From Lytechinus pictus (Eukaryota): DNA of 64,000 nucleotides. Position numbers and translations under genes: made by a program. Positions 737 through 58,066 of this stretch are shown here, one piece after another. The notes beneath the pieces were generated by a model, which saw only the letters and a list, made by a program, of their open reading frames with translations, was not told the origin of the DNA and made no database searches. The first letter of the stretch is position 1; each line of letters begins with the position of its first letter. The stretch is taken from the NCBI RefSeq assembly GCF_037042905.1, contig NC_087251.1, forward strand, positions 930,001-994,000. Reading direction: 5' to 3'.

Positions 737-776
737 CTACACCATATATTGAACAAAAAATGCATAATAAATTGCT

Positions 777-2310: not shown

Positions 2311-3726
2311 TTTTAGAGATCGTACTACTGATGGAGCTCATTGCGTTACTCTTCTTACATTGTTTATGATGATATACATCTTCTCTTCAACCTCGCGGTG
2401 ATAGCGGACGCCGCCGTGAACTTTTAAAGATCGTACTACTGACAGAGCTCATTGCGTTACTCTCTTACATCGTTTATGATGATATACATCTTCTCTTCAA
2501 CCTCGTGGTGATAGCGGACGCCGCCGTGAACTTTTAAAGATCGTACTTCTGACGGAGCTCATTGCGTTACTCTCTTACATCATTTATTGATATACATTTT
2601 CTTTCCAACCTCGTGGTGATAGTGGAAGCCGCCGTGAACTTTTAAAGATCGTACTACTGACAGAGCTCATTGCGTTACTCTCTTACATCGTTTATGATGA
2701 TATACATCTTCTCTTCAACCTCGTGGTGATAGCGGACGCCGCCGTGAACTTTTAAAGATCGTACTTCTGACGGAGCTCATTGCGTTACTCTCTTACATCA
2801 TTTATTGATATACATTTTCTTTCCAACCTCGTGGTGATAGTGGAAGCCGCCGTGAACTTTTAAAGATCGTACTTCTGACGGAGCTCATTGCGTTACTCTC
2901 TTACATTGTATGTGATGATATACATCTTCTCTTCATCCTCGTGGTGATAGTGGACGCCGCCATGACCTTTTAAAGATCGTACTACTGACGGAGCTCATTG
3001 CATTACTCTCTTACATCGTTTATGATGATATACATCTTCTCTTCAACCTCATGGTGATAGCGGACGCCGCCGTGAACTTTTAAAGATCGTACTTCTGACG
3101 GAGCTCACTGCGTTACTCTCTTACATTGTATGTGATGATATACATCTTCTCTTCAACCTCGTGGTCATAGCGGACGCCGCCGTGAACTTTTAAAGATCGT
3201 ACTACTGACGGAGCTCATTGCGTTGCTCTCTTACATCGTTTATGATATACATCTTCTCTTCAACCTCGTGGTCATAGCGGACGCCGCCGTGAACTTTTAA
3301 AGATCGTATTACTGACGGAGCTCATTGCGTTGCTCTCTTACATCGTTTATTGATATACATTTTCTTTTTAACCTCGTGGTGATAGCGGACACCGCCGTGA
3401 ACTTTTAAAGATCGTACTTCTGACGGAGCTCATTGCGTTACTCTCTTACATCGTTTATGATATACATCTTCTCTTCAACCTCGTGGTGATAGCGGATGCC
3501 GCTGTGAACTTTTAAAGGTCGTTTTACGGACGGAGATCAATGCGCTACTCTCTTACATTGTTTACAAAAATGATATGTCTTCTCTTCAACCTCGCGGTGA
3601 TAGCAGATGCCGCTGTGAACTTTTAGAGGTCGTTTTACGGACGGAGATCAATGCGTTACTCTCTTACCTCCTGTATGATGATAGACATCTTCTCTTCAAC
3701 CTTGTGGTGATAGCGGACGCCGCCGT
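2311..3726. repeat. Tandem minisatellite, ~110-bp unit, ~13 copies
   Basis: Unit TTTTAAAGATCGTACTACTGACGGAGCTCATTGCGTTACTCTCTTACATCG...GGTGATAGCGGACGCCGCCGTGAAC; copies diverge toward the right end. Confidence 0.95.
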
Positions 3727-16482: not shown

Positions 16483-17235
16483 TTACTTGATAATGGGAGG
16501 TAAACTATAAACAGGATCTTCTAGTTTTCTTGTTCTTTGTGACCCTCTAGCTGATTTCTCTTTTTGTTTTGTTTTCATAGAACTTCTTGAAGAATCTGCC
16601 TCCATTCTGTTAGACCATTCTTTCTGCAATTTCTCAGAAGACCTTATGCTCTGACTATTGTTTGGCAGATGGTTCTTTCTTGCACTAATTTTGGCATTAT
16701 GTTCATTCTGGGAGCTGTACGCAACATGAGGACTATGTCTGAATTTATCACGCTCTTTTCTGTTCACTTCGGCAATTTTGAATTCATTCTCTTGCCGAAC
16801 AACCTTATCATGTTGATGATGTTGGGGATCATGCTTATTTTGTTGTCTTGTTGACACTTCTTGCTTGGCTACAACATGTGACTCTACATGTAATACTGCA
16901 CCTTTTTGATGAAGTAAATGCGTTTTATGGTATTGATGGTTTCTTTGTGCTTCATGATGATGTGTGCGCTCAAACTGTTCAAATTCATCTCGGATTACTT
17001 GGAGGGCATCATCATGCCCATGCTTGTGATGCCGATGTTTCTTTCCTTTCCTGTCTTTCTCCCGATGTTCTTTGTTCCTGAGTGAGTCTTGACCATCAGG
17101 TCTATGTCTTTCAATGCTTGGATTCTGAATGGATCGTGATGAATGCCTGTGCTTGGGATGCAGACATTCATCATCTTTATTGCCCTCTGATATATTGCTG
17201 GATCTTAGGGACGTTTTCTGCAATTCTTTCTCCTT
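16483..17235 (-). CDS. Terminal coding exon of an uncharacterised His/Lys/Arg/Glu-rich protein
   Basis: 250 open codons starting exactly at a very strong polypyrimidine tract + CAG acceptor (17236-17290). KEKELQKT...VYSLPPIIK*. No recognised domain. Confidence 0.65.
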   Translation of the reverse strand, partial: KEKELQKTSLRSSNISEGNKDDECLHPKHRHSSRSIQNPSIERHRPDGQDSLRNKEHREKDRKGKKHRHHKHGHDDALQVIRDEFEQFERTHHHEAQRNHQYHKTHLLHQKGAVLHVESHVVAKQEVSTRQQNKHDPQHHQHDKVVRQENEFKIAEVNRKERDKFRHSPHVAYSSQNEHNAKISARKNHLPNNSQSIRSSEKLQKEWSNRMEADSSRSSMKTKQKEKSARGSQRTRKLEDPVYSLPPIIK

Positions 17236-17724
17236 CTGAAAAAGCAAAAAGAAAAAAAACAAGAAAACAAGAAAAAAAAAAGAAAATTTGAAAACCAACA
17301 AAACACAAGAAAAAGGGCAATTTTCACACCAAAAAGTCAAATTCCAAAACATAATTTTCAAAAATAACAAAAATATATATAAATACCTGCAATATTTATG
17401 CTCTTGATATGACTGAAATTTGATAAAAATTTTCAAAATCAATCTTTATTTCCGGCTCTGTGATATGTGATCACTAAAGATACTGAGTGTTCAATTTTTT
17501 AATTCCTGGGTACATGAGCAACATGCAAACCAAACATGGTATGACTTTTATAGCATGTGCATATTTGACTTCTATAAAGGAAGCTGTCATGAAAGAAGCA
17601 TGCAACTGTTTGTTTTTCCTCTTAGTTTGTTAAATTAAATGTATGGTCCATAATTTGCAAACAATTTGACAGATGAATAGCAGCTAATATTGCCATAGCT
17701 TGGTAAATATTCAATTCTAATCTT

Positions 17725-28510: not shown

Positions 28511-30026
28511 GGCAAATATAGCGATCTTCAACGCTTATATATAAGCGTCGAAATTTGTAGCCATCTCCTTGTATTAGTCTATAATATACGACGTGTCAAA
28601 TTGTAGCGAACTAGTTCGCTATTTCCAGATCTCCTCTATATATATATACGAGGGGGAATTGTAGCGAACTAGTTCGCTATTTTCCAGATCTCCTCTATAT
28701 ACAAACGACGGGAAATTGTAGCGAACTAGTTCGCTATTTTCCAGATCTCTATATACATACGACTGGAAATTGTAGCGAACTAGTTCGCTATTTTTCGGAT
28801 CTCCTCGATATGTACACGAGGGGGAATTGTAGCGAACTAGTTCGCTATTTTCCAGATCTCCTCTATATACATACTACGGGAAATTGTAGCGAACTAGTTC
28901 GCTATTTTTCGGATCTCCTCGATATATACACAAGGGGGAATTGTAGCGAACTAGTTCGCTATTTTTCAGATCTCCTCGATATATACACCAGGGGGAATTG
29001 TAGCAAACTAGTTCGCTATTTCTCGGATCTCCTCTATAAATATATATACGAAGGGGCATTGCTGTAGCGAACTAGTTCGCTATTTTTTTATCTGACTACA
29101 TATACACGACCGGAAATTGTTGCTAACTAGTTCGCTATTTTTTTGATCTCATACTATGCAATATGGCAAACTGTAGCGAACTAGCTTGGCATTTTTTCCA
29201 AAGCTTACATTATTGTGAAGGCTTCAAAGTGAAAATCTGCAGGTTTTGGCTGTATATATTGGTGCCATATTGTCAAATTGTAGCGAACTAGTTCGCTATT
29301 TTTCGGATCTCCTCGATATTTACACGAGGGGGAATTGTAGCGAACTAGTTCGCTATTTTTTGGATCTCATACACCAGGCCCGGGGGAATTGTAGCAAACT
29401 AGTTCGCTATTTTTCGGATCTATATGCGACGGGAAATTTTGGCGAACTAGTTCGCAATTTTTCGGATCTCCTCTATAAAATTATATAGAGATCCGAAAAA
29501 TAGCGAACTAGTTCGCTACAATTCCTCCTTGGATATATAGAAGAGATCCGAAAAAGAGCGAACTAGTTCGCTACAATGCCCATCGTATATATATAGAGGA
29601 GATCCGAAAAATAGCGAACTAGTTCTACAATTCCCCCTCTTGTATATATAGAGATCAGAAAAATAGCGAACTAGTTCGCTACAATTCCTCCTCGTATATA
29701 TAGAAGAGATCCGAAAAATAGCGAACTAGTTCGCTACAATTCCTCCTTGGATATATAGAAGAGATCCGAAAAATAGCGAACTAGTTCGCTACAATTTCCC
29801 GTCGTATATATATAGAGGAGATTAGAAAAATAGCGAACTAGTTCGCTACAATGCCCCTCGTATATATATAGAGGAGATCTTTCTGAAAAATTGCGAACTA
29901 GTTCGCTACAGTTTGACACGTCGTATAATATAGACTAATACAAGGAGATGGCTACAAATTTCGACGCTTATATATAAGCGTTGAAGATCGCTATATTTGC
30001 CATCTATAAAATACCGAGCTCGGGTT
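28511..30026. mobile_element. Foldback element made of inverted minisatellite arrays
   Basis: ~110-bp near-perfect TIR (GGCAAATATAGCGATCTTCAACGC...); ~23 units of ~55 bp, each with palindrome TAGCGAACTAGTTCGCTA; orientation flips at ~29480; right end GAGCTCGGGTTA. Confidence 0.88.
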
Positions 30027-38001: not shown

Positions 38002-41000
38002 TTACTTCTTGGGCTTCAAACGGAACCAGTTTTGTTTCTTAGTATTGAGTCCAGAAGACAGAGAATTCTTGTTTGATCTATGGGAGATACCATTGCTAGC
38101 GACCTGACAATCTGCCCCAGGTGGTTTCTCTTGTAGCTGATTACCTCGCTGATTGGGAAGTGAACTGATCTGCTTTTTATTACTCACTGAATTCCTTATT
38201 TCAGGTTTGGCAAGTTGTCTTGAGGAATTAGGAGTATTGTCTGTAGCATTCAGACCCTTTCTCTGTTCAGCTTCAGAGTTTCCTTTGATATCTTCAGACC
38301 TTATCTGCTTTTCACTTGTTGAATACCTATCAGGAGACTCCTTATCCAAAACAAAAGAAAAGGTTTGTGTTGGCATGTGTCTAGTAAGGGATGAGCCACT
38401 CACAAAGTAGCTCAGTGTTGAAGAATAATTTCGGTCTGTGTAGATGTGTCTATTTGCTTCAACGTATGCTTCAACTTCCTCCAGTGTGGCCAGCGTCTGT
38501 GTAGATTTCATTTGATTTTGTACTCTTTTTGACCATTTCTTTTTGAATGATGGAAGTTCTCTTTCTGGAAGGCTCATATTATATGTCTGTGTTCTGACGC
38601 TGTTCTTTGGTTCTGTTCTTCCATCCTGTGATCCTGTCACAATGATACTTGGTTCCCTGTACCATTCTCCCATTGCCTGAATATGAGCCTCAACTTCTTC
38701 CACTGGTACATCTGTTTGACATAAACAATGAGCTCTTACTGCACAAGGGAAATCACCTGTGCTAGATGGAACCGCTGAAAGGATGGGTGAAAGTTCGTGA
38801 GGATTCAACTTCTCAAGAATCGAAGGTGATTTACTAACACATCTCTTCTCCACCATTTTCTGTGGTGTTCTTGAAGGTCTTTTGGCGTCCCCTTTATCAT
38901 GCTCAATGGGTGGGTACACAGGCTTGACTTCATCTTCCAAGGAGGGTGATAATTCCAAGTTGTAAGTCTGGGTTCTCATATCACAAGTTGCTTTTATTTT
39001 TATAAGGCTTGGTCTGGGTATTACAAAACATGGTTCCAAATAGACTTTTCCTTTTGAAGTAACATAGTCCTCCACTTCCTTGACCGTTGCATATGTCTGA
39101 GTAGATGAGGTACTAGTTTCCTCTCTAACTGGTACATCTTTCTGGAGAGCCACTACACTGCATTCTAAGTCATCTGCTTTGGCAAAAGTTGACTGTGTTG
39201 TATCTGATTCAAACCTCCTCTTAGCTTTCTTAATACTTCTGTCAACTACATTCTCCAATAATTCTTCCTCACCAGGCATCTTTCTCTTCTTTGGTGTCTT
39301 TGAAGATTTGTCAAATGCATTAACAAGTTTCTTGTGTGGGCTTTCTCTCTTTCCTGAATAAGCAATTTCCATAATTTGTTTTCTAGGCCATCCCATCTTT
39401 TTCTTAATCTCAGAAGTATCACTTGGTTGTTTGCTATGACTTTCTTTCATATCAGAATCTGCGACATCCGCAACTTGTTTTCTCTGCCTTCCCATATGTT
39501 CCTTAATCTCAGAAGACCTTTGCATCTTTTCTGACTCAGCTTCCTTTCTAGGCCTTCCCATCTTTTTCTTAATCTCAGAAGTATCACTTGGTTGTTTGCT
39601 AGGACTTTCTTTTATATCAGAATCTGCGACATCCGCAACTTGTTTTCTCTGCCTTCCCATATGTTCCTTAATCTCAGAAGACCTTTGCATCTTTTCTGAC
39701 TCAGCTTCCTTTCTAGGCCTTCCCATCTTTTTCTTAATCTCAGAAGTATCACTTGGTTGTTTGCTAGGACTTTCTTTTATATCAGAATCTGCGACATCCG
39801 CAACTTGTTTTCTCTGCCTTCCCATATGTTCCTTAATCTCAGAAGACCTTTGCATCTTTTCTGACTCAGCTTCCTTTCTAGGCCTTCCCATCTTTTTCTT
39901 AATCTCAGAAGTATCACTTGGTTGTTTGCTAGGACTTTCTTTTACATCAGAATCTGCGACATCCACAACTTGTTTTCTATGCCTTCCCATATGTTCCTTA
40001 ATCTCAGTAGACCTTTGCATCTTTTCTGACTCAGCTTCCTTTCTAGGCCTTCCCATCTTTTTCTTAATCTCAGAAGTATCACTTGGTTGTTTGCTAGGAC
40101 TTTCTTTTATATCAGAATCTGCGACATCCACAACTTGTTTTCTATGCCTTCCCATATGTTCCTTAATCTCAGTAGACCTTTGCATCTTTTCTGACTCAGC
40201 TTCCTTTCTAGGCCTTCCTATCTTTTTCTTAATCTCAGAAGTATCACTTGGTTGTTTGCTAGGACTTTCTTTTATATCAGAATCTGCGACATCCGCAACT
40301 TGTTTTCTCTGCCTTCCCATATTTTCCTTAATCTCAGAAGACCTTTGCATCTTTTCTGACTCAGCTTCCTTTCTAGGCCTTCCTATCTTTTTCTTAATCT
40401 CAGAAGTATCACTTGGTTGTTTGCTAGGACTTTCTTTTATATCAGAATCTGCGACATCCGCAACTTGTTTTCTCTGCCTTCCCATATTTTCCTTAATCTC
40501 AGAAGACTCAGCTTCCTTTCTAGGTCTTCCAATATTTTTAGCTGTATGTTCCTGACTTTGATTATTTGCCTTACTTGTTGCAATAAGATGCAGTCTCAAA
40601 GTAGTGGATTCCTTTGAACATGATAATGGGCTGTCAACTTTCCCATCTTCTTTACTTCTTTTAACACTTGAGCAAACTCTAGGCTTCCACACCTTGTTCA
40701 TGCTTTCAGGAGAGATTTGAAAATCAATATCTTGTGTACTCTTTCGCTGTTTAGAATCACTTCTGGAGATTGAATGTGCTTTTTCACCATCTGATTTTCT
40801 GTTGATGGCAGGATGTGACTTTTTCCCAAACACAGGTGAGGGTTCCTGACATTCATCAGGTTCGATTAATGTTTCATGGGTAATGGCATTGTTTGATGTA
40901 GTTTTCCAGGGACTCCGCATGTGTGAACAGCAGTACTTCTTCTTGCGTAAATCTTTTGATAGATTTAGCCCCATGGTATCCATTGAAGAGCCAATATCTG

Positions 41001-44000
41001 TCTTTCCTTGGGCCAATGTTGGACTTTGCGATGAGTGGGTAGGCTTTGGTTCCTTTCTGGTGCTTCTACTCATTCTTTCTTCAGAATTTAAGAGAATCTG
41101 GACATCATCTTTTGCTTCTTTCCACACATCATCTCCTGTCCACAATTTCAAGAGTTCAGTTTTAGTTCTTCTATATTTTGAAGATTGAACTGATTTTTTT
41201 AGTTCCTCTTTCAACAAACTTCTGCACATCTTTCCTGTTTGAGACTCTGCTTCTGAACTTGTGAATGCAGTCTGGTTATCACCTGAATCCATTACACCTT
41301 CAGCCGCTGCTGAATTTTGTGGAGTGGTTATGTAGTCTGTCTGTCCTCTATCAGATTTTTCTTTCTTTTTAATTCCCTTTTCCTTTTCCCGTGTCAATTG
41401 AGGAAATTCTCTCTGATTTTTTAACTGCCGATTGTTTTTCTGTGGCATGATTTTTCCATCACTCATTTCAGGCAATTTTGCAAGTTCTCTATTGAATAAC
41501 TCGCCTTCACTGCTGGGAGCAGGCTCTATGTTGGGAGTTACACACATCACATTGTATGTCTGCGTATATCTACTCCTTAGTTTTCCATCTTGGATGAGTG
41601 TAGAAGACAGATTACCTGGTTCTCTGTAATGCTGGCCCATGGAAGCAAGATAGGCTTCAGTTTCATTTATACTAGCAGTTGTTTGTGATGATCGATCAAT
41701 CAGCTGCACATGTCTCCCTACATCTTGCAAACTTAAGTTACTCTTACTGTCAGCTGACTTGGTAGAAGTTTTGCCAGTGTTTAAAACAATATTAGACCTC
41801 TTGTGGATTTTACCAGGGCTTTCATTAACTTTAGTATCATCCTCTAGTTCTTCCTCTGTTAACAATGATACATCAAGCTGGGCATCTTTCTCATTTCTAT
41901 GTACACCACTGGCAGTTTTATCAGGAAATTCCCTATCACCATGCTCACTCTTGCCTCTACTGCTCTCAGACATTACATCATTATCTATAGCAAAGATTTT
42001 GAGTAAGCTTTTCCTTGACTTTCCCTTTTGACAAGCTTCCTCTGTACCAATATTACATGCAATGTCAATTCCTGTTACACTGATTTCCATCTTTTTGGAG
42101 GAATGAGGTGAAATATCATTGCAAGTTGGCTTCTCCATTTGTGAATTTCCATTTCTAGATCCTGCCATTAAACCACTCAATGCCTGGTTTTGCCTCCCTG
42201 ACCTTTTAGAAGAATTTTCAATTGATGGCCTTGTATGTTTTGGTGAGCATCGATCGAGAACTGTCTCTGCTGAAATGAGCTTGGTAGATGGCATTCGATC
42301 CTTGATTATGCAAGGGGATATGGTCTGCTTTCCAACTTTATTTGGAGAGAAACTGATACCCTTGAGACCATGTTTCTGTGCTTTGTTACGTGTCATTCTG
42401 GCATCTTCCTCAAGCAACTTGGACATATCATCTCTGAATTCCTTCCAGGTTTGATCATCCTTCCAAGCAGTCAGAATTCCCAAGGAATTTCTCTTATGCC
42501 TCTTTACACTGGATGATCCTCTACGATTCACATTCATTTCACCTGTTTCTTTGATTTCATTAATGGATGCAACAGATGATTCTGCTTCATGATCTAATAC
42601 TGCTTCACCAGAATCCTTGTTTCCTGTTGCACATGCACCATCTTCATCATGTTTTGGGTCTAATTTGTTACTCTTCTTTGAGGAAGTCAGCCCAGAATCA
42701 CATGGCATTTCAATGCCTGTGGTATCAAGGATTGTTATTGGGGTGGATTTTGCCCTCGCATCTTTGTTTATGACACTTCTTGTTGTCCTCCCATCAACTT
42801 GAATAAGGCTGACCAGATCACCTTTTGCTTCTTTCCATGTAATATCATCCTTCCATGAAGTAAGAGCATGTAGCTCTTTGGATCCCTCTGCTGAAACTGT
42901 CAAATTTGTTGGCTTGTCTGGTTCCTGTGGTTTATTACTCTGCTTGTTGCAGGAAATTGGATGGGAATTCTTAGCAGGAGCATCACTGGCTGATATTTTC
43001 TGCTTGACCATATACTTCGGATTTGTTGATCCTTTTGATTTTTTCCATTTGCCAGTAAATGAATCGCGTTTCGGGGTGCGATATCTATGACATGATTGAT
43101 GTAGGGGAGAAGGTGAATGAAGGGTAAGTTTCTGTTTTTTAGGCGATGGAGAGCATAGTGCTGTATCATCTGCCAACTTTATTCCATCTTTTTTCAAAAC
43201 ACTCCTTGTTGCTCTCCCATCAATCTGAAATAGATGATCAAGATCACGCTTTGCTTCTTTCCAAGATGTGTCATTCTTCCAAGATGTCAAATCTTTCACC
43301 AAATTGCTTTGCACATGCCGTAGGCCTTCGATAGATAATGCAACAACAGGGGTTTCACTCTCCTCTGACAAATTAACAGCAGCCCTAGCAGGTTCAGAAT
43401 TACCATGAGAGTCAACCTTGGGAGATGCTAAGCTTTGAATATTAGATATCCTTTGGGGGTAAACAATTGGTTTATGATTGATATCAGGACAGCTTGCATT
43501 GATCTCGTTTTCTTTTCTCTTAGCTGGCGTTGACCCATCTTTCTTCAATCCATTCCTTGTTGCTCTACCATCAACCTGTGAGAGTAAGGAAAGATCTTGC
43601 TTAGCCTCTTTCCAGGTTGAATCATCCTTCCATGATGTCAGATCATTCAGCAAACTTTCACCTTTTTTTCTTTTTTGTCGTGTAGAGTTTGATGGATTTA
43701 TTTGTGATTCTACTTCCTGTGAATGAGAAATTGGTATTTTCATTTGATCAACATCTGCATCATCTTCATTGGACAACGTGCTCTCAGCATTGCATGATTT
43801 ACCGGAAAGTGGTAATTTCTGAGCAATCTCCTCTCTGCTCAAACCACCAGCTTTTCTTTCCTCTCCTATAGTTTTAGAAGGTGTTTTCCCAACATTCTTC
43901 AAAGCACTTCTTGTAGCCCTACCCTCAACCTGAAATAACTGAACAAGATCCTGCTTGGCTTCTTTCCATGTTGTGTCATCTTTCCAGGACGTTAAAGAAT

Positions 44001-45680
44001 GAAGCAAGTTCTTAGTTTTGACTGGAATACCTTCCGTGTCTACAGGAACTATTTGTTCCTTAATCTCTTTAGAGAGCGGTAAAGGAGAGTTAGATTTTTG
44101 GAGAGAGGAGGCATGACCATTGTTGTTCTTGGTATCACATTGTTTATTCGGAAGAGGTAATTTCTGAGCATTGTCTTCTGTGCTCAAAGCACTGGCTTTT
44201 CTTTCCTCTCCTGTAGATTTAGAAGGTGTTTTCCCAACATTCTTCAAAGCACTTCTTGTAGCCCTACCGTCAACCTGAAATAACTGAACAAGATCCTGCT
44301 TGGCTTCTTTCCATGTTGTATCATCTTTCCAGGACGTTAGAGAATGAAGGAAGTTTTTAGTTTTGACTGGAATACCTTCCGTGTCTACAGGAACTATTTG
44401 TTCCTTAATCTCTTTAGAGAGCGGTAAAGGAGAGATAGATTTTTGGAGAGAGGAGGCATGACCATTGTTGTTCTTCGTATCATAATGTTTATTCGGAAGA
44501 GGTAATTGCTGAGCATTGTCTTCTCTGCTCAAACCACTGGCTTTTCTTTCCTCTCCTGTAGATTTAGATGGTGTTTTTTCAACGTTCTTCAAAGCACTTC
44601 TTGTAGCCCTACCGTCAACCTGAAATAACTGAACAAGATCCTGTTTGGCTTCTTTCCATGTTGTATCATCTTTCCAGGACGTTAGAGAATGAAGCATGTT
44701 TTTAGTTTTGACTGGAATGTTTTCAGTGTCTACAGGAACTATCTGTTCCTTGATCTCTTTTGAGAGAGGTACAGGAGAACTGGATTCTGGAGAATCTAAG
44801 CAGGAGGAAGATTCAAGTAAAGCATTTGAGTCCAGCAGCTTCTCTGATTGGGTTGAATTATGAAAGCCATTGCTGTCATTCAAGGATGCTTGCGTTTCCT
44901 GGCTTTCTCCTGAACTAGCTGATGCTTTAGATGGTGACCTCCTCCTCCACAGGAAAGATCCAACTGAATCCAGGATTCTGCTACCCCAGCTCAACTTCAC
45001 AGATGACTGGTTGCTAGTATAATGATTAACGTTAGTTTGTGTTGACATATTTCCAGAAGCAGATTGAAGGATATCACCCTTTTCACTCAACAATGATGAT
45101 TCTTGTGCTCCAGTCTCACCTGCAAGGCTACAAGAATTAAGATCTAATTTCCTGGCCTTCTTGTATTTCAATTTATTACTAGTCTTGCTATTCTTGCTCT
45201 TCTTGGATGAGCTGGCAGCTGGAGATAGAGATGGCATGCTGAGATTAGGAAGATTTATGTTTTGAGATGGGGGTTCCAGGGTCACGTAGCAATCTAACTG
45301 TGGAAGCAGTTCCCTGCACTTGGTAACGGATAATTCTCGGGAACTGCCATGCCCAGAATTTCCCCACTCATATGTTGGTGACAATGACACTCTAGGAAAC
45401 TTCATAGTTTGAAAGGGTGTAGATTTTGGAGAACTTGAAAGAGAAGATTGTTGAGTAGACACAGGTGATAAAGGTGGAATGATTGGGGTACTGCTCTGTT
45501 TCATCTTCTTTACAGGTCTGGGTGTTGTTGGGGGAGGACGTGGACGCTTCCCTTGGGACCTAATGGCTGATCTTGCTCGAGTGCCACTCTGACCTGGGGT
45601 TCTATTCTGCTGTGTTCCAAGGGAAGATGATGATTTTGAAGTATCATATCCTTCATTGGCAGCATTTTGCTCCATAAAAC
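38002..45680 (-). CDS. G2E3/PHF7-like gene, giant terminal coding exon (~2,559 aa, repeat-rich, largely low-complexity)
   Basis: Uninterrupted ORF. Acceptor tttatttcag at 45681-45690 gives GT-TTT-ATG, completing the phase-1 Gly codon from exon 49556-49677. Stop TAA at 38002. Confidence 0.88.
39380..40535 (-). repeat. Coding tandem repeat, 165 bp / 55 aa, ~7 copies, GRPRK AT-hook-like motifs
   Basis: ACTTGGTTGTTTGCT recurs at 39421, 39586, 39751, 39916, 40081, 40246 and 40411. Confidence 0.95.
43800..44780 (-). repeat. Coding tandem repeat, 345 bp / 115 aa, ~3 copies
   Basis: TTTCCAGGACGTT at 43981, 44326 and 44671. Confidence 0.95.
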
Positions 45681-47426
45681 CTGAAATAAATATAAAGCAT
45701 AAATAAGTTCAAATAAATGATTCAATAACTCATTCTTATCTATTGGCATTAAATACATTTCTTTGCAAGAATATGATATTCTAGTCCCACATGTAGACAT
45801 CCAGGTGCAGTAGAAGGCCCTAATTTGCATCTCATTAACGCCCCTAGTACTTTAGATTCTCAAAGAATTTCTCATACACATCGACACCTGGCAGATCCAA
45901 GTAAGAATCTTGTCTGTCTTATTGTGCACTTCGGTGGCCTTTCATGTGCTGAAATTTTCATGAAACAGAATGTAATAAGAAATATTACATTACATTTTAT
46001 GAGATTTTATATTTCAAACAAGGCTCACCCCTCAATTATTTGATGACACAACAGTAGCGCAAATCTCATGCTTATGGAAAGCATATATACATATTCATGA
46101 TCTGGTGACAGTGTTCGCTTGCTGGTCTTTAATTTTGAGAGAAAATCATATAGGCCTTGTATAGGTCTTTATAACACAAATGAGACTCAACGTAGAGCGA
46201 GAAATTACATCAAATTATGTCATGCAACGGTGAATGCTCTGCTTGCAATCTCGAAACATACTCAAATTATGTTTCAAACATGTAGGACCGTAGCAAGGAT
46301 TTAAGCAATACATGATATACGTGAGGATCAATTTCGACGTTGATTTTGGAGTGTGTTTTTTTATTGACATAACCATGATAAAAAGGTGAATCTTAGGTGA
46401 GTTTTAAATTGGAATTGTTTCATTTTGGATGTAAATAATTGGACTAGTGTATGGTTTATAAATTTATTACTACCTTTATTTTGTAAGTTTCCATACCAAT
46501 AATAATAGTAATGATGGAGATTTTGGCTTCAAAATTAGTTAATTTTATACACTATTTGGCTTCAAGTGTTTATGCAAATCACGTGCGCCCAGCAATGATC
46601 GTGAGGAAGGTAATTGGGGTATAGGCCTGCATTCATGTCAGTAAATTGAGCTTGACATCAACTGAAATGGATCTTTCAGTGTAAAAAATGAAGGGATTAT
46701 TTCTTACTTTCTTGATAGTTTCCAATTAAAACAAAATAATTTCAAGCAAATATGGAAAATAAGTACTTCATATATGTAAAGATGTGAAATTTCAGAAACC
46801 TATGGGGAAGGTTTTTTCTTTTGTCCCCCTGCCAGTTAACCCTAACTGCCCGTTTTCAAATGGCGTTTAAATGTTTTTCAAAATTAATATGACTCAGGCC
46901 TGCTTTCTAATCATGTTTAATTGTCATCATACCATACTAGATATACAATGGGTATAAAACAAATGTTTAAAAAATGTTATAAAAATGAAATACCCTGAAG
47001 CCTCTCCCACATCTAAATATAGGTACAAGCCTTCTTAAGCAAATGGCAATAATTATGACTGTTGAATAAGGTATTCACTTCAGTCAGCATCACTTACTTT
47101 ATAATATCATGAAAAATAACTTGCACATGAAAGTGGAGATTGATTTGATGTTTTTCCTTTCTAACTTTTTTCCTTGCCCGACAACCCCCCCCCCCCCTTG
47201 AATGCCACGACCACCGCGAGATCTGTTTTACATGCAGCCATGAACAGAGTAAAATAATATTTTTTAATCGCTTTTATTCCTTGAGGTTATGCTTGAGAGA
47301 GTGTATAGAACTACACAAAACAAAATGAAGTCAAATTTTGCAGAAAAGTAGATCAAAATCTGTGAAAGATATGACGGCATGGTATAAGAACGGGGTGACT
47401 TATTAGAATTCCTTTTTTTTCATCCC

Positions 47427-47902: not shown

Positions 47903-49555
47903 TTTACCTCGAATTTCATAGTTCATTTCGATAGCCGAGTTGTTCCAACAAGTTACAATAGATCTGATTTGTTCTTTAAACTATTATTATTTCCTAAATT
48001 ATGAGAAATGTTCAGCACAGTAAGCTTGTTTAATCACCCTCTTATCTGATACAGCACTATTGTGACAGACAATATCTGTCAGCTTTATAGAAGAAGGCAG
48101 TGTTCAATAAGTATTATATTCTGTCAATATTTTATTCAACCACACCCCCCCCCCCCCCGAGATCTCAGCTGCCGATCCCATGAGCATTGTGAAAATTGGC
48201 ATGATAATAGTGTGGGGTGTGTTCTACAAGGCTGTATGGTTATTTTTTCCAAAATAACAAGGTTTTTTAAATACAAATTAATTATGCTAAATTATGCACA
48301 AAACATACTTTTTGCTCTAATTCACTAACTCCTAGAATGCTAATTATTGGTGTTACTAACCTTTATACCATTGCTAACAAGTATAAATGAAAACAATTCT
48401 GGTTTGAAAATAAATTTCTTATGCATTTGGGGAATTTCTTTTGTTTTTCTTTTTTTTTGCCAAATTTATAGAAGAACCTTTTTGAAGCATAATTATGCTA
48501 GAATCAATTAATTTTGGCTGACGTCAGTAAAAATAATCATATCTTTATGAATAAGATGAGAAAACACAATTCACATTGACTCTGTACACAGAATCACGTG
48601 TTGGAGCAATTTTGGGTCTGACATGCACTTATGTAATGTTGCGTAACTTTTCAACCGCATACCCAGGTCATAAATTTGGTCTAAAAAATGCGCGAGACTT
48701 CAAAGTAAAAAGTCAGCAAGTGGCGCGGTCGAAAAATTTCACGCAGCGGAATTGTCGCGGAAATTGTTGAGGGGGCGTTGATTCAACCCCCCCCCCCCCC
48801 CAGCGGCTTTAGGGTTAAAGTGTAAATACTTCATTGATATGCACCGCAGATTAAGAATGTTTTAATATAATTTTCTTGACCAATCACTATGGGAATTTAG
48901 ACTAAAAACCTGAGTATGCCAAAAATTACTGACACACAAAAGCACAATTGGGCAACTCTAGTATGATTGCTTGAAAAAGACCCATCAACCAGATAGGTCT
49001 ACCATGCATATTTTACAGGACAATTACCCATTTGGGCAATTCAATAAAATATCAACATCCAGCCCCCTCCCCCTCCCCCCATCAGTGGGTTCATCGAGAG
49101 CCCTGTCTAACAAAGAGTTACGATTGATCCGATCAATCTCAAATATTTGTCAAGAAAACAGTGAACGTATGAATATAAATTATTTCTAGAAAACAGTTTG
49201 AACAAACATATATGTTAGATGTTGATGGCTTTCCATAGTTGTGATTGATCAGATCAAGCGCAACTCTTTCTAAGTGGGGACCTTGATTTCACTTGTTTCC
49301 CAATCTGGCTCGTATGTAAAGTTCTCATGCTGTGAGATTATCAGAGTAAATTATTATGTCATGTAAGAAATAGGTAATAAAATAAAATAAGTTAAAATAT
49401 GGAGGGGGGTGGAAATACATAAAGGTTGTTTATTTCATGGAATTGCCCACTCACTTACTACTGGAATATGACAAACATTTTTCATTTATGCATACAAACA
49501 CCTGAGAGGTCAAATGGACGTTACTATAACTGGATTTTTGTAGTTGTAGACATAC

Positions 49556-49677
49556 CTCTGGTGAAAGTTGAAGTACAATCTTTACATGCCCAGTCATCTA
49601 AAGCACTTAGTAATCCACCACAAGACACATGACACCCAGCTGAACCGCATAGATCACATAGTACAATTTCCCATTGA
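49556..49677 (-). CDS. G2E3/PHF7-like exon: third zinc finger (PHD)
   Basis: QWEIVLCDLCGSAGCHVSCGGLLSALDDWACKDC; ctcag/gtatgt; phase 2 to 1. Confidence 0.92.
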
Positions 49678-49980
49678 CTGAGATGGAAAAAAAATCAAAT
49701 TGAAAACAAAAAATATCATGAGGAATACATCAACTGAGTGATATAATATTCTTTGGTTTTCTGGATCATGTTTAAGAACTCCCAGTCAAATGGCAGTCCC
49801 TTTACTGTGCATAGTACAACATACATGAAATGCACTCTGTCATTACGTCAGTACTCTTGGTTTAAAGGTAAAGGGGTGTACCAGTAGTATATTTGTTTCG
49901 TTTATATCCTCTGACACAGAGTATTGTATTTTATTACATCTAAATCAGATTAAAACCATAGTGTATGAAAGACAACCTAC

Positions 49981-50097
49981 CCTGATTGTGTAGAATACTT
50001 TCTGCCTTTTGGACATCTACATTTACTGACATCACATTGGTTGTGTCTCTCATAGAGTTCTTGGTATGCTGAACTTCCAAATTCCCAATCAGCATCC
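49981..50097 (-). CDS. G2E3/PHF7-like exon
   Basis: DADWEFGSSAYQELYERHNQCDVSKCRCPKGRKYS, matching the family motif DAxWE...AYQEL...CD...CxC; ccag/gtaggt. Confidence 0.92.
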
Positions 50098-50649
50098 CTG
50101 GAAAACAAACAAAGACTATCAATTATATATCATTTGAAAAGGGTCATATTCTAATAGTACTTTTGTCTATTTAACAGATAGGATCTCAAATATTAAAAAA
50201 CATGCATTGTAGCAAATTCACTTCATGCAAAAAAGAAAATGAGGAAATCCAGATGTCCACAGCTCAATTCTTGATTTAAGGTTTAAAAGTCACATACTGA
50301 TTTAAGAGAAGCAGTTAATGGTAAACTTTTGTTAAAATCAAAGAATTTGGAAAGAAAATTACATGCTTATACCATTTTAATGGCAAAAGGATTTAATTTG
50401 TAAGTAAATGTCCATGTTGTACACTAACTAGACTAGGGTAATAATATGCAGAACTTACAAACATTATTATTATTATTATTCAGTTGGAACATGAAAATCA
50501 ATGTGCATTTTCCTGTTCCTGGCATCCATTTATAAGAATGCTGCATTCCATCTGATAAAACCTTTATTAAAAAATAGAAAGAATATTTCTGATTTGACAA
50601 AGTCCTAAAAACTCATTAATGTATTGATAGAATACATCAATTTCCTTAC

Positions 50650-50753
50650 TTTTCTGGTAGGTAGATACCAAATTTCTTCATTTCGTCTTGAAACTCATTC
50701 TCATTGTTACAGATGGCACATCGGAAGAAGTAACCAGCACTCAAAGCTTGCAT
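50650..50753 (-). CDS. G2E3/PHF7-like exon: end of RING
   Basis: [34 protein letters not shown](K); ttcag/gtaagg. Confidence 0.92.
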
Positions 50754-51478
50754 CTGAAGACACATATGAAACAATTACTGGTAGTTTTTTTTATGTCTTT
50801 ACTATCATCCAATTTTGATAAAAACCTACCAGAGCCCCATTGCATAAAAGATACTATTATATTAACTTTGCATTCCAATGATAACTACCATGGTAATGAT
50901 GATCCACAGGCAATCAAAATCAAGGATTCCATGCAAGTTACCATTGCATGGCACAGTTACATAACTTTTATGCAATGGGGCCCAGAAAGGGTTTTTTTTT
51001 TTTGGAGGGGGGTGTTAATTCCTCTTGAAATCCAATTCAAAGAGCTTCATTAAAATCATAAAAAGATATTTGAACAATCTTGGTCAGATTTGACACTCAT
51101 GACCCTTTCCATTAGAACCTGATGAGTAGGATGTCTACCCATTCCAACCTACTGCCATTCATTTATTACAACATGTAGTACTAATGATGTCTGAAAAATA
51201 AAGACTCATTTACAATATCAATCATGACATGTACTACATCCTCATCCCAAAGTCATTGAAGTTTTAATGATAGAATATTTTGATAGAACACTATACCAGA
51301 TATGGTGAGTCTGGTGACTCATTGGTGGAGCACCTACTTCATTTATGGTAGATCCTGATCACTAGTAATGTCATAACAAAGACCTTCTTGTCAGGAGATC
51401 AGCATACAAAAATGGGTAAATGTATGTTATGTAGGGCTCACTGGAAAGTTGGTATCATAGCTAAAGTATCTACAATAG

Positions 51479-52678
51479 CAAGCCTTGAAATAAGCGGGCG
51501 CTGAGCGCAAATTCGCGCTCATAAAGCCATCAATTACGCCCATACAGCCCCAAAATCATCAAAATTTTGACGACCGGGCGCAAATATTTTCCAGGTAATT
51601 GCGCCCGCCGTGAGTGAGCAGTGAAGCCATATCATACATGTAATTTAAATATCTGAAAAGCCAAAATCAAGTAACTTTCAATTTATGATAAGCACAATTT
51701 CAAATTGCCAAGTGCGTCTTTTTTTCTGTACCGGTACCGGGGTACCATAAAAAGTGAGCTACGTCCGTCTTTTTTTTCTGTAATACATGTGCGCGCGTGC
51801 TTCCAGTAGCGGTTTTTCCATACTTCACCATATGCAATTTCTAATGCACACATTTCCAGTTGGGATATCACAATTCTGCGACATAGTAATTCGAATTGCA
51901 CAGGAGATAAATCCCTGTTCACAGCACGTACGATGTGCGAGTCTTTTATCCTGAATTTAGACTCTCCCAGAATGAAAGGCATTTTCTGTGGAGATCTGCG
52001 TTTTCAAATAACTTGTGAAAAACTTAAGTTAAGGTACATGAACCTACAATACATGTACATAGCCTGTGGCTATGTGCTGGAATTTGAATAGACTGAGTAC
52101 GATATTGATTTCATTTCTTTAACATAATTTATATACAATCCAAGTGCACCTCACTGTCACAATCACACACAAACACTCACCCACATCCGTGATTCTAACC
52201 ATGAAAAAAAAAACTTAAAAATTATTTTTTTTTTCTAAATTTATTATTATTTGATCTGAATTCTCTCTTTCTCCATCTCTCTCTTTTTTTTTTATATTTT
52301 CATTTTATTCATTTATTTAGATTTTTTTGGGGGGGTTCATTGTTCGTGGTTCATTAAAGATGAAAAATAGATAAGCCCATGTGTGTGTGGTTGTAAAGGG
52401 GATGTGGAGTGAGGGTGTAAAAACACACTTAAACATTTAAATCTGATTTCTTAAATGTCAGCCTAATACTTAGCATGCTATTCATGTACTAATTAAAAAA
52501 TTGCAGGAGCTGCGCTTACTATAAACAAATTTGCGGTGTGGTTCACCGTTATGTATATATTTTTTTAATTGCCTCCGGTTCCAGAAAATTGCCCCCGGTT
52601 CCTGTAAAAAGCCCGTGAGCCGGGAGCAATTTTTTTTTTAAATTGCCCCTGGTCTGCAGCTGCTTATTTCAAGGCTTG
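51479..52678. mobile_element. hAT-like MITE
   Basis: TIR CAAGCCTTGAAATAAGC / GCTTATTTCAAGGCTTG; imperfect 8-bp TSD TACAATAG/TACCCTAG. Confidence 0.72.
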
Positions 52679-53159
52679 TACCCTAGGTATCATTGTGTAA
52701 CCCTACATGTAGGTATTTTTTAATTCAAGGTTTATTAAAAACATGAGTCACAGCCAAATGGCTAAAATTGGTCATATATATACAAGGTACAAACAATTAA
52801 AAGACTCATTACATATTTCAAACATTAAAAAGCAGTAACCTTTGTAAAAACTTACATGAGAAATATGTATATAGTTAATAAGGCAAGAATACTAATTAAG
52901 GCAATACAAATTAATATACATGTACATAAGATAATGAAGAAGTGGTAATGTAAGAATTAAAAAAAAATAAGCAAGTTGTAAAAGATCAATAAAAATACAA
53001 ACCTGATATGTAAGTACTTATGGTATTGCTTTCAAATCAGTAATGGGTTTATTGATTGGGCATGTCTTTATTCAGGAGATCTATGAAATATGGTATGGGG
53101 CTATTTCGAAATTGATTTGTTTTACATTATCGTGCAGCCCAAAGCTGGAGTTTACTAAC

Positions 53160-53328
53160 CTGGACACATTGTCTATGGAGCCAAGTACCTTTGCAGCATG
53201 GTGTCTTGAGTACACTATTGCTTGGTGTGGTCTCTACAGGCTCCATACATATTGGACATGTCCCTTTACTTGGTGAGCAAGAGGAAGGTAATACCTTCTG
53301 AACAGGACGATGCTTCGCGCAGTAAGAT
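53160..53328 (-). CDS. G2E3/PHF7-like exon: end of extended PHD (ePHD), start of RING
   Basis: SYCAKHRPVQ...CPICMEPVETTPSNSVLKTPCCKGTWLHRQCVQ; ctcag/gttagt. Confidence 0.92.
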
Positions 53329-53424
53329 CTGAGTTAATAATAATAATAATTTCCATTTTGCCTTTCTCATAAAGACTGGCCAGGAGAGGGATGATTTGAG
53401 ACACCCCCCTTCAGATTTTGGCTG

Positions 53425-54016
53425 TTAAAGGAGAATGAAACTCTTGGAGCAAGTTAGCTTTTGTGAAAGCAGAAAAATCAAAGAATAAGATCAACAAAAG
53501 TTTGAGTAAAATAGGACTAGCAATAGAAGAGTTATGAGCATTTGAATGTCGAGATCACTAATGCTATGGAGATCCTCCCATTGGCAATGCGACCAAGATC
53601 TATGATGTCACAGATGAACAACTCTCCCCTTTTGGACGCTGAAAATATTCCCCAAAACATCTCTTATTGCTCATTCTAATCATATGACAAACGATTCATC
53701 AATGATATAATGTTGTGAAACCTCTCTACTTGTCCTCTCATAAAGAGAACACCGCACCTTGTGATAGACTCTATAAAAGTGAGAATATAAGTGAAATAAG
53801 TACTAAAGTAATGAGGGAGTTGTACGTGTGTGACATCACAGATCTTGGTCGCATTGCCAATGGGAGGATCTACATGGCATTAGTGATCTCAATATTCAAA
53901 TGCTCATAACTTTCTTATTATTCATTCAGTCTTCCTCAAACTTTCACCAATATTTTTCTTTGATTTTTCTCTTTGATATGGATTCAGCTGGTTTCAAGGG
54001 TTTCATTCTCCTTTAA
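53425..54016. mobile_element. MITE family B copy
   Basis: Near-identical to 12117-12716; TTAA flanks. Confidence 0.85.
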
Positions 54017-54573
54017 TAGCACAATCACAATTAAAATCTGCACACAAATTGTCCGCGACTTGGTCTCCATGACTGAATAATACTTTTTCCACAAACTGTT
54101 TTATCTTTCATGCCTCCAGGTCCACATATGATAATGGAAAGTTTGGAAACCTAGCATAGTTTAAAACAATTCAATAGTTTGAATCAAATCTGACATCGTA
54201 CACAAAACTAAGCAACATTTTGTGAATAAAAACAATGAGATATGACAAGCAAAAAGAAAAAGTAGACCAACAGCACAATAATATGTCCAAAGTTGCCCAG
54301 ATAAACTTGTGAAGCGATTGAAAATGACTTTTGAAGTCACTGCGATATTCCCTCATACATGTAGCATGGATCATGACATCACAACTAAATTATCATGTCA
54401 CAAGTTTTACATGTACCATGCAATTTTAGATAATTTTTTCTAGACTTGAAGCATGTAATAGTAAGGCAATATGCAGGCTACATCTACATGTAAATACTAT
54501 GGTAAAAAATACTTGGTTTTATCACACCACAAAATATCTAAATGAGGCTTTAGAAAAGTAGTAGAAAACTTAC

Positions 54574-54698
54574 ACAAAACTGTCATAGAATAGGTAGATT
54601 GCTTCCTCATCTACACCACATCCATAATGATAGATCTGATGACATGCCTTCACTGAGCAACCTACTGAAGCTCCTTTCTTCTTACAGTACTTACATTT
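54574..54698 (-). CDS. G2E3/PHF7-like exon: ePHD core
   Basis: KCKYCKKKGASVGCSVKACHQIYHYGCGVDEEAIYLFYDSF; tgtag/gtaagt. Confidence 0.93.
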
Positions 54699-55293
54699 CT
54701 ACAGTAAAATACAATGATAAACACAGGATTATAAATTTTCATCCGAAATAACTATGCCACGGGGAATAAAAACTAGAAGACTTTCAGGGCTTAAAAAAAA
54801 TTAAATCCAGCAGCGGAATGGTAAAAAAATGTTAGGGGGGCTAAATAGGCCCCCACCCCTTGGGCTAGTGGGCTAGATAGCATCTATATTCAAACCTTTA
54901 ATTAACCAAGTAAAGCTATGGAAATAATAGTACTGAGCAGGATCTCTCAATTTCCTTGCTTCAATTTATCGGCCAATAACTCTATAATCCTTATGCATAG
55001 ACATGGACGCATTGTTTCCTCTGTTACTCTACTGTAGAACTGCAGTGGGTCAAAGTAACTTAAAGTCACAAACAGAAAAAAACGGCAGCCAGATATGGGC
55101 AACAAGAGACAAGTTATTTCATACGGGCCTCTTTTATACTAATTGAAGTTCAATGTTCTGAATCCATGTTTTATGAATTGAGCATTGCTATAGTATGTCA
55201 CACAATCTTCAAAGAGCTTTATATTGATGGGTTTCAGTTCTGCTGACCTTTATCTGCACATGCTCATACTGAAATTCCTTATTGTTGACTTAC

Positions 55294-55395
55294 CAGTTTT
55301 TGTGCCCTTTTTCTCTCAGCTAAGATATCCTTGATTAAGAATCCCTCAATCCCTTCATGGCTTTCACCACGCTGACTGAGTCCACAAGCAAATAG
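55294..55395 (-). CDS. G2E3/PHF7-like exon
   Basis: LFACGLSQRGESHEGIEGFLIKDILAERKRAQKL; tgcag/gtaagt; phase 0 to 0. Confidence 0.93.
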
Positions 55396-55514
55396 CTGCA
55401 AACACACACAAATGCATCATTATATTCAAAAGAAAGTTCATCATGACATTCAGTTCATGTTGTAAAAGCAGAAAAATGAAGAACCATCCTCATGAATATT
55501 TAGTGAAATTCTAA

Positions 55515-57157
55515 AACAAGTGGAACGCCTCTGGCAGTCTCGCCTGCATTACGCGATTTAATATAGCAGCAGTGCTAACTTTGAAAACTACTATAAAATA
55601 ATCATTCACAAAAACACCATTCATATAATGACATAATACCGCGTTCACTGACCATAAATGACATTTGAACGGTGACTAAGTTAAAGGACAAGTCCACCCC
55701 AACAAGAAGTTGATTTGAATAAAAAGAGAAATATCCAACAAGCATAACACTGAAAATTTCATCAAAATCGGATGTAAAATAAGAAAGTTATGACATTTTA
55801 AAGTTTTGCTTTATTTCACAAAACAGTTATATGCACATCCTGGCTGGTATGCAAATGAGGAGACTATGACGTCATCCACTCACTATTTCTTTTGTATTTT
55901 ATTATGTCAAATATGAAATATGCTACTTTTCTCCTCATTGGCAAGTGATACAGCGATTAATTCCTCCCTGAACATGTGGCATTAGGCGGATTAGCATTGT
56001 TTAATACTATATGTTTCAGTCAAGTTGCTCCTTATTGTCAAATCTATAAAAAATGAAATATTGAATAATCCAAACAATAAAAAACAAAAGAAATAGTGAG
56101 TGATGGACATCATCGACTGACCCACCAAGTTGTGCATATCACTGTTTTGTGAAAAATAAGCGAAATTTTAAAATGTCATAACTTTCTTATTTTACATCCG
56201 ATTTTGATGAAATTTTTTAGCACTATACTAGTTTGATATTTCTCTATTTATTCAAGTCAGTATTTTCCTGGGGTGGACTTGACCTTTAAGACTTGTCAAC
56301 TACACCCATGTCCACATTTCATTCACTCTATCCATAAACTTTCAAAGTTACATGTATGATGGCAATTAAACAATTACCCCAACATGGCTTAAGTTTATTG
56401 ACCTTAACTAGACTAACCTTAACTGACCTTTGACCTTGGTTTTGTGACCTGAAACTCACAGGGGATGTTCAGTGATACTTGATTACTCTTATATCCCAAG
56501 TTTTATGAACTAGATCCATAAACTTTCAGAGTTAGGATGGTAATTCAACAAATACCCCCAACACGGCCAAAGTTCATTGACCTTAAATGACCTTTGACCA
56601 TGGTCATGTGACCTGAAACTCGTTAGGATGTTCAGTGATACTTGATTAACCTAATGTCCAAGTTTCATGAACTAGATCCATATTTTCAAAGTTATGATAG
56701 TAATTCAACAAATACTCCCAACTTGACCAAAGTTCATTGACCCTAAATAACCTTTGACCTTGGTCATGTGACCTGAAACTCGAGCAGGATGTTCACTAAT
56801 ACTTGATTAACCTTATGCCCAAGTTTCATGAACTAGGTCCATATACATTTTTAAGTTTAATATGTCATTTAAAAAACTTAACCTTCGGTTAAGATTTTGA
56901 AAATAATTCTCCCAACATGGTCCAAGTTCATTGACCCTAAATGACCTTTGACCTTGGTCATGTGACCTGAAACTCAGGCAGGATGTTCAGTAACACTTGA
57001 TTAATCTTATGTCCAAGTTTCATGAACTAGGTCCTAGTACTTTCAAAGCTATGACATAAAAAAAAAAAACGTAACCTTGCAGATTTTAATATTGGCACTG
57101 CCACCTTTGGAAAAGCAGTACCGATAGTTTCAATCTGCTATGCAGGCGAGACAAAAA
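55515..57157 (-). mobile_element. Helentron-associated (HINE-like) element with internal tandem repeats
   Basis: Subterminal IRs GTCTCGCCTGCAT (55537) / ATGCAGGCGAGAC (57140); four ~160-190-bp units containing TGACCTTTGACC; A-rich flanks. Confidence 0.7.
55681..56289. mobile_element. MITE family A copy nested in the HINE-like element
   Basis: TTAAAGGACAAGTCCACCCC...GGGGTGGACTTGACCTTTAA. Confidence 0.85.
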
Positions 57158-57287
57158 TGTAGAGCTAATTCTGATATGATATCAAGAAAACTATTTCCTG
57201 TAAATTGTAATGTGAAGAATTTCCATTGAAACAAGCAAACGCCATGAAAAACAGAACTGTATCTAAAAGATAAATTAAAGTTCTCAC

Positions 57288-57388
57288 CATACAATAGTAA
57301 TGAGCACAGATTCCACTTTCTTCATGGTGAAGGAATTTACCATAACGTTGAACTGATTGCTCAGAACTGTCACAGAACACACAACATC
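57288..57388 (-). CDS. G2E3/PHF7-like exon: pre-PHD C2HC knuckle (most 5' coding exon found; start exon not located)
   Basis: CCVFCDSSEQSVQRYGKFLHHEESGICAHYYCM; tttag/gtgaga; needs an upstream phase-1 exon. Confidence 0.9.
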
Positions 57389-57537
57389 CTAAAGAATGAG
57401 AATGTGTTCGAAAGATAAAACAAAAAACGGTAAACTGGGAGATGATTTGGGATCATAGAATTGTTGATCTGCATGTACAAACTACTAACTAGTATTCAAT
57501 GTCACATCAACTACATGTATAACTGGCTAATGATTAT

Positions 57538-57794
57538 TTCATCATCATCACCACCACCACCACCACCATCATCATCTTCATTACCATCATCATCATCATC
57601 ATCATCTTCATTACCATTACCATCATCATCATCATCTTCATTACCATCATCATCATCATCATCATCTTCATTACCATTACCATCATCATCATCTTCATTA
57701 CCATTACCATCATCATCATCATCTTCATTACCATCATCATCATCATCATCATCTTCATTACCATCATCATCATCATCATCTTCATTACCATTAC

Positions 57795-57828
<34 letters not shown>

Positions 57829-58066
57829 TTCATTACCATTACCATCATCATCATCTTCATTACCATTACCATCATCATCATCATCATCTTCTTCATTACC
57901 ATCATCATCATCATCTTCATTACCATTACCATCATCATCATCATCATCATCATCTTCATTACCATTACCATCATCATCATCATCATCATCATCTTCATTA
58001 CCATTACCATTACCATCATCATCATCATCATCATCATCTTCGTTACCATCATCATCATCATCATCA
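57538..58066. repeat. Compound trinucleotide microsatellite (ATC)n with CTTCATTACC interruptions
   Basis: Directly visible; explains the poly-S, poly-D and poly-M ORFs. Confidence 0.97.

Follow-up and report, generated by a model that had tools for sequence, protein, structure and literature searches.

The window analysed here is a stretch of 64,000 nucleotides from the sea urchin Lytechinus pictus (assembly GCF_037042905.1, contig NC_087251.1, positions 930,001 to 994,000 of the forward strand; positions below are counted from its first letter). It contains a minus-strand gene that, by its sequence, is an E3 ligase of the G2E3/PHF7 family without a HECT domain, with a zinc-finger core followed by a very long tail. 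The tail carries a repeat of about 30 amino acids, here called module A, in eight copies in a single frame of the minus-strand open reading frame 38002-45708 (2568 codons). The comparisons below indicate that module A is real, that none of the libraries searched has a name for it and that it is so far restricted to sea urchins. While the family of the enzyme core is a known one, the architecture of the tail is a variant not described before.

The tail is encoded by a giant terminal coding exon of about 2560 codons (38002-45680, minus strand), which was delimited by the open reading frame, RNA depth and a spliced contig and has its splice acceptor at about 45678-45682. The transcript continues into the 3' untranslated region. 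The core, composed of extended PHD (ePHD), RING, linker and PHD, is distributed over seven small exons within 49554-57390 (minus strand, without the first coding exon), found by tblastn and in an RNA contig: 57288-57390, 55294-55395, 54574-54698, 53160-53328, about 50650-50760, about 49980-50100 and 49554-49677. A single RNA contig connects five of the seven with the giant exon, the other two coming from tblastn alone, and two CT..AC splice joints in the gene have raw-read support. Three raw RNA runs show transcription of the giant exon on the minus strand; first mates over it lie on the plus strand only, the pattern that most stranded libraries give for a minus-strand RNA. Over the region queried, the protein is 100% identical to a database entry labelled Lytechinus pictus, and orthologues carry the labels L. 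variegatus, Strongylocentrotus purpuratus, Diadema setosum and D. antillarum; the C-terminal NWFRLKPKK and the stop are common to the L. pictus and S. purpuratus proteins. The ePHD begins in exon 57288-57390, which RNA shows to be spliced but which the database L. pictus model lacks. That model, starting one exon later, is probably truncated at the N-terminus.

The 30-residue cores of module A are found on the minus strand at 44596-44685 (copy 1), 44251-44340 (copy 2), 43906-43995 (copy 3), 43552-43641 (copy 4), 43201-43290 (copy 5), 42775-42864 (copy 6), 42385-42474 (copy 7, diverged) and 41062-41151 (copy 8, the most diverged), with a copy-to-copy spacing of 115, 115, 118, 117, 142, 130 and 441 amino acids. 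A first-pass annotation, made from the letters alone, had listed eight copies, and all are in one frame within about 10 bases of where it placed them. It had also put three of them in a 345-bp tandem repeat, and copies 1-3 do lie in this repeat (43807-44778, 2.8 copies, 93% matches). The residues L, W, D, W, K, E, D, L, R and R are invariant in all eight copies. Both W-x5-W and WKE occur eight times in the host protein, each time inside module A, compared with shuffle means of 0.25 and 0.21 (2000 shuffles); the full pattern, derived from these same eight copies, was seen in none of the 2000.

Copy numbers in five urchin species are 8, 7, 5, 4 and 4, with degenerate copies in addition in Diadema. 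The 28 copies compared from these species all have W-K-E, one Leu and both Arg, and 26 retain the first Trp; the Arg-rich end (R-x-T-R-S) has T in 24 copies and S or N as its last residue in all 28. These copies were picked by WKE[AFT] and the second Arg, so invariance at those positions is partly due to the way they were chosen; an unbiased profile added just one clearly degenerate copy per Diadema protein. The Trp and Arg positions, whose loss in orthologues would have spoken against the annotation, are thus retained in urchins. The motif [RM]-[AVILMT]-[TS]-R-[SN] has eight occurrences in the host protein, all in module A, and none in 11 non-urchin relatives.

The annotation described the spacers as unrelated and the module as kept, and this agrees with the six non-tandem copies, where ungapped identity is 59% in module A and 10% in the 30 amino acids on either side. 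The proportion of synonymous differences (pS) between non-tandem copies is 0.56-0.98, which means saturated synonymous sites, and that of nonsynonymous differences (pN) is 0.09-0.44. This saturated pS with low pN, together with flanks at about 10% identity, shows that module A is under strong purifying selection. Between species the same preference is seen, with 80% identity in module A (128/160; five of eight modules aligned) and 49% in the spacers (275/562) for L. pictus and S. purpuratus, and 97% and 89%, respectively, for L. pictus and L. variegatus. Copies 1-3, with a pS of 0.05-0.16 among themselves, are the product of a recent amplification via the 345-bp repeat. Some other copies, by their grouping, predate the genera Lytechinus and Strongylocentrotus because copies 6 and 8 have S. 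purpuratus counterparts (copies 4 and 5, with a support of 0.92 and 0.93) in a copy-grouping tree that is rough, being based on short sequences. It could be argued that the repeats are a neutral by-product of tandem duplication in a large exon, given the origin of copies 1-3 and a copy number that ranges from 4 to 8 across species. This is, however, contradicted by the saturated pS with low pN, by the divergence of the flanks, by the higher conservation of modules than of spacers and by the orthologous copies across genera, and we find it barely credible.

Module A has a narrow distribution. A search of the L. pictus genome gave at least eight candidates, and the best ones, which were those considered, are all at the present locus (8/8). 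The 28-copy profile found no copy in the 11 long non-urchin relatives (four starfish, one hemichordate, four insects and two others; best E 2.9). In a HMMER search of 1.84 billion representative proteins there were two matches at E <= 0.001, both of them urchin orthologues, a threshold that a single diverged copy elsewhere could miss. The earlier statement that the module could not be assigned to a named domain holds for Pfam: no family passes when the eight copies are scanned singly, the best being WWE (E 0.015, one of eight copies) and DUF7904 (E 0.029, one of eight). Reprolysin (26.6 bits, above the whole-protein cut-off) and ATP-synt_Eps were both rejected as summed repeat scores with no passing stretch and no single-copy match. 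A PDB sequence profile gave two sequences, both with E 0.27, for a 15-residue exosome stretch, and these were also rejected, as were the generic helices (best Z 4.9, 0-17% identity) in a wide structure search (VIA). Foldseek returned no matches with module A. ESM Atlas had no usable match for module A or for a second repeat, module B, described below, and a blank there carries no weight. In a word-indexed search with the eight-copy alignment (proteins of 73-2000 amino acids) none of 1528 candidates scored, and as a known carrier of 1916 amino acids was also missed, this result carries no weight either. Ubiquitin-binding helices of the UIM/MIU type have an invariant Ala with a flanking hydrophobic and Ser/Leu pattern. 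Module A was rejected as such a helix, having no Pfam match, F or T in place of the Ala in four of the 28 copies and K/R next to it in 27. No published description of module A was found in the PHF7/G2E3 or sea-urchin literature, subscription journals and supplements being outside the scope.

In the core of the protein, residues 15-294 of the S. purpuratus orthologue align with residues 10-285 of the PHF7 structure 8jwj_A (E 7e-60), and its ePHD matches 8jws_A (E 2.2e-21). The N-terminal ePHD is also found as PF13771 in four of the five urchin proteins, among them the database L. pictus protein (E 3.7e-15), the L. variegatus isoform being shorter. Over 249 N-terminal residues, L. pictus and S. 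purpuratus share 93% identity. An alignment with mouse PHF7 shows that the E2-binding linker residues D228, W231, E232, Y242 and R244 are kept, with Y for F238, and that N208 is kept too. At the RING-face contacts with E2 and ubiquitin, L162 is replaced by I, and S181, K192, Y193, P205 and Q206 all differ. No HECT family match was present among the Pfam results of six proteins. A second gene of the G2E3/PHF7 family was not found among the genome candidates scored, a comparison that took in the best 15 of 23 ePHD loci; the translation of one candidate paralogue (L044, E 1.08) resembles an unrelated RING protein, as judged by eye, and was rejected. As the sole such gene among the candidates scored, the host gene would most simply be the urchin G2E3/PHF7 orthologue. 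The sea cucumber g2e3 gene is reported to lie within a candidate sex-determination region and to have sex-biased gonad expression (PMC9128100).

The family is known for acting on chromatin. PHF7 is reported to ubiquitinate histone H3 with a preference for K14 and to bind nucleosomes multivalently, the ePHD binding nucleosomal DNA and the RING-linker-PHD part binding E2 (PMC10760634). G2E3 is described in a research highlight as the main mammalian writer of H3K14 ubiquitin, with its targeting left open and with a chromatin association that is RNase-sensitive, the RNA-binding module being undefined there (PMC12920882). The three-finger module is reported to have evolved from G2E3, with Phf7 confined to amniotes and some Diptera (PMC7973481). 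A host gene from a family of histone E3 ligases, which the first-pass annotation had not recognised, makes the chromatin context of module A stronger than the sequence of the repeat alone implied.

For one copy of module A, AlphaFold predicts two helices, the first of them short, with a break in between (predicted local distance difference test, pLDDT, 84-90 and then 81). The second helix is amphipathic, with a moment of 0.32-0.71. In a model of an 801-residue stretch with seven copies, each helix coincides with a module or slightly precedes it, and coil fills the spacers, at low confidence (mean pLDDT 37). Module A is thus predicted to form helix-break-helix islands in a disordered chain. Module A might be a docking site for a non-histone partner such as a heterochromatin factor, a remodeller or a component of the ubiquitin system; the module would fold on the partner and bury W/A/L/L, the Arg end would provide charge contacts or a kinase switch, and the copy number would set the number of partners. 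The invariant W-K-E and L, the near-invariant W and D/E and the amphipathic helix do resemble a shaped protein interface, and a T-P-x-K site follows each of copies 1-4. The lineage-specific tail of Drosophila Phf7 is reported to be required for one function, and bridging to other factors has been proposed there without direct data (PMC7973481). On the other hand, no known docking motif was matched in Pfam or by the PDB profile, no partner gene is suggested, and invariant Arg pairs in the tail of a histone enzyme would point first to chromatin. We consider docking on a non-histone partner unlikely, although deserving of serious attention. Another reading is that the modules self-associate through the hydrophobic helix faces, giving a folded or oligomeric tail that serves as scaffold or condensate. 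Recurrent amphipathic helices in a disordered chain would suit this, and the paired TQT motifs of module B suggest a dimeric tail. Self-association would, however, leave two invariant Arg beyond the helix face unexplained, and the seven-module model has no confident packing (predicted template modelling score 0.20), a point that is weak given an alignment of five rows. Self-association is in our view quite improbable.

Module A is not the only repeat in the tail. An AT-hook-like array at 39379-40530 (minus strand) has seven GRPRK and one GWPRK, mostly in a 165-bp (55 amino acids) tandem repeat of 6.8 copies. The AT-hook family PF02178 is above the whole-protein cut-off only in the S. purpuratus protein, below it in P0003 and unlisted for L. 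pictus, and AT-hook-like repeats are present in three of the five urchin species. The GRPRK period is 55 amino acids in L. pictus and mostly 33 in S. purpuratus, which has 11 copies, and there are none in the two Diadema models. This difference in period and the absence from Diadema suggest that the arrays have been amplified separately. Module B consists of (S/T/C)QT, an EVEAY-like stretch, Y-x-E-P and TQTY, thus a paired candidate TQT of LC8 type, and has four copies on the minus strand (41554-41688, 38962-39102, 38581-38721 and 38359-38502) that end in TQTY/F. It is found in four copies in L. pictus, L. variegatus and S. purpuratus, nine in D. setosum and three in the D. antillarum model, with none in the 11 non-urchin relatives. 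Module B is a candidate LC8 platform, for which ASCIZ is reportedly a multivalent example. TQT is described as the usual LC8 anchor (PMC12057147).

There are 20 S/T-P-x-K/R sites in the tail (38002-45680, minus strand), including one behind each of the first four module A copies and a single site in every one of six 55-amino-acid repeats. S/T-P-x-K/R is the consensus of cyclin-dependent kinases, and control of this type is a possibility. A basic motif just after the PHD (45538-45579, minus strand), RARSAIRSQGKRPRP, resembles a stretch of starfish orthologues, TRTAMKLMGKHPR, and is the sole tail feature seen by eye in both urchins and starfish. An ancestral Arg end in starfish was looked for and set aside as unproven: the post-PHD motif is the top window in two of four proteins (6.8 bits), which is within the shuffled range (95th percentile 9-10).

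Module A might also be imagined to use a small helical hairpin together with the Arg pair for binding nucleic acid, be it satellite RNA or the DNA of nucleosomes or linkers, and to target the ligase to satellite chromatin. The RNase-sensitive chromatin association of human G2E3 (PMC12920882) fits such a role, two invariant Arg and two Trp would suit the contact, and the T-R-S-S-R stretch of H2A recurs in copy 5 of S. purpuratus. Binding of nucleic acid is nevertheless improbable: the module core is neutral to acidic with a conserved D/E, no nucleic-acid-binding Pfam family was matched, and three of five species have AT-hook-like repeats in the tail anyway. The suggestion in the annotation that the Arg-rich end could be a histone-tail mimic has also gained little. 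The H3 of this genome begins ARTKQTARKS, whereas the R-x-T-R-S of the module is internal, and only a stretch of three to five residues, T-R-S(-S-R), resembles the N-terminal tail of H2A.

The reading that we favour, tentatively and at somewhat less than an even chance, is that the array of module A is a multivalent tether to nucleosomes, with the helix and the R-x-T-R-S end on the H2A-H2B acidic patch, a partner that we infer. Each module would grip a nucleosome through its predicted amphipathic helix and the invariant R-x-T-R-S end, which would dock on the acidic patch in an IE1-like manner. The core would ubiquitinate histone H3, as family knowledge suggests (K14 for mouse PHF7 and human G2E3). 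Judging from the anatomy of the tail, copies 115-142 amino acids apart could bind several nucleosomes at once, the AT-hook-like array could add contacts with DNA, and the paired-TQT modules could add dimerisation driven by LC8. With such a tail the ligase would stay longer on chromatin, and a targeting job of the vertebrate C-terminal region would pass to it. A chromatin role for module A is supported by the histone-directed ligase core of the host, by the invariant Arg pair and by the AT-hook-like repeats alongside. The sequence features of an acidic-patch anchor are present, with two Arg (28/28) and flanking T (24/28) and S/N (28/28), and they are necessary but non-diagnostic. The Arg-rich end has a net charge of +2 to +4 over the 11 residues from the first Arg. 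In IE1 the anchor is M483-V484-T485-R486-S487, where T485 and S487 are reported to bond to H2A E64 (PMC9040877), and Ser is said to be enriched beside acidic-patch anchors (PMC10606924).

Several observations weigh against such a tether. Published surveys report no diagnostic anchor motif, and none emerged from 94 sequences in one of them (bioRxiv 2024.06.26.600687); the Arg-rich end, which had reminded the first-pass annotation of acidic-patch arginine anchors, is therefore only a lead, and the likeness to IE1 is weak. Of the 30 conserved residues of module A, about 20 are located outside the Arg end (two W, K-E, D, L), which is more than peptide anchors need. In 26 of 28 copies the first Arg has an acidic residue two positions ahead of it, and the net charge of the 30-residue core is 0 to -2 in seven of the eight window copies and +1 in one. 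In the single-copy AlphaFold model the helix runs on through the Arg end at a pLDDT of 49-56, a confidence that speaks neither for nor against an extended anchor. Module A is missing from the long tails of starfish, hemichordate and insect relatives, which implies that the enzyme in general does without it, and mouse PHF7, which has no long tail, is reported to work on nucleosomes in vitro (PMC10760634).

A broader proposal, which we regard as doubtful, is that module A is a new mini-domain for binding nucleosomes, made of a two-Trp helical hairpin and an arginine anchor, amplified four to eight times on an old H3K14 ligase core. Together with the AT-hook and LC8-binding arrays, the 300-kDa chain could bridge a series of nucleosomes and, needing neither a HECT domain nor an RNA adaptor, direct ubiquitination to heterochromatin, its reach being tuned by repeat number. 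How G2E3/PHF7 ligases find chromatin is open for human G2E3 in the highlight (PMC12920882) and for the fly Phf7 tail in the published account (PMC7973481). In the urchin the tail breaks down into separate modules under selection, 30-45 amino acids long and thus within reach of peptide synthesis, which opens the question of targeting to direct tests in a tractable embryo. Should module A bind nucleosomes, it would be a new natural nucleosome-binding unit that has arisen and been amplified within one animal class. Its restriction to urchins is a narrow distribution and limits the general reach of the finding.

The rest of the window has other features. A frame of 320 codons (16483-17445, minus strand), rich in His, Lys, Arg and Gln, is probably an exon of another gene, and the end of a short frame (564-776, minus strand) presumably resembles mitochondrial ribosomal protein L4. 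Tandem arrays are found at 2311-3726 (110 bp, 13 copies), at 28598-29932 (a 54-57-bp family in both orientations around 29480) and at 57539-58066, where a microsatellite resembling (TCA)n lies immediately upstream of the exon for the ePHD. In a histone repeat of the genome one H2B copy (L039:1647-1979, minus strand) ends early with an altered C-terminus and is either an assembly error or a pseudogene; three other fetched copies are full length.

Several known systems offer a comparison. Like the peptides of human cytomegalovirus IE1 (residues 476-491) and KSHV LANA (residues 1-23) described in PMC9040877, module A has T-R-S after a mostly small or hydrophobic residue, a second Arg nearby and a basic end. 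It differs from both in that a conserved helical part, with two Trp and with acidic residues, precedes this end and in that there are eight copies, and from IE1 in having Arg, not Met, three places before the candidate anchor. Mouse PHF7 (PDB 8jwj and 8jwu; PMC10760634) has the same ePHD-RING-linker-PHD core of about 280 amino acids with the linker residues kept and no HECT domain. The mouse protein, however, ends near residue 307, whereas the urchin adds about 2560 residues with three types of repeat, and several RING-face residues are altered (S181, K192, Y193, P205 and Q206). Human G2E3 shares the N-terminal module (PMC12920882, PMC7973481) but is described as HECT-type, while the urchin tail consists of repeats and predicted disorder. 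Drosophila Phf7 likewise carries a lineage-specific tail without a known domain on the same zinc-finger core; that tail is fast-evolving and makes up about 40% of the protein (PMC7973481), whereas the urchin tail makes up about 90% and contains discrete conserved modules.

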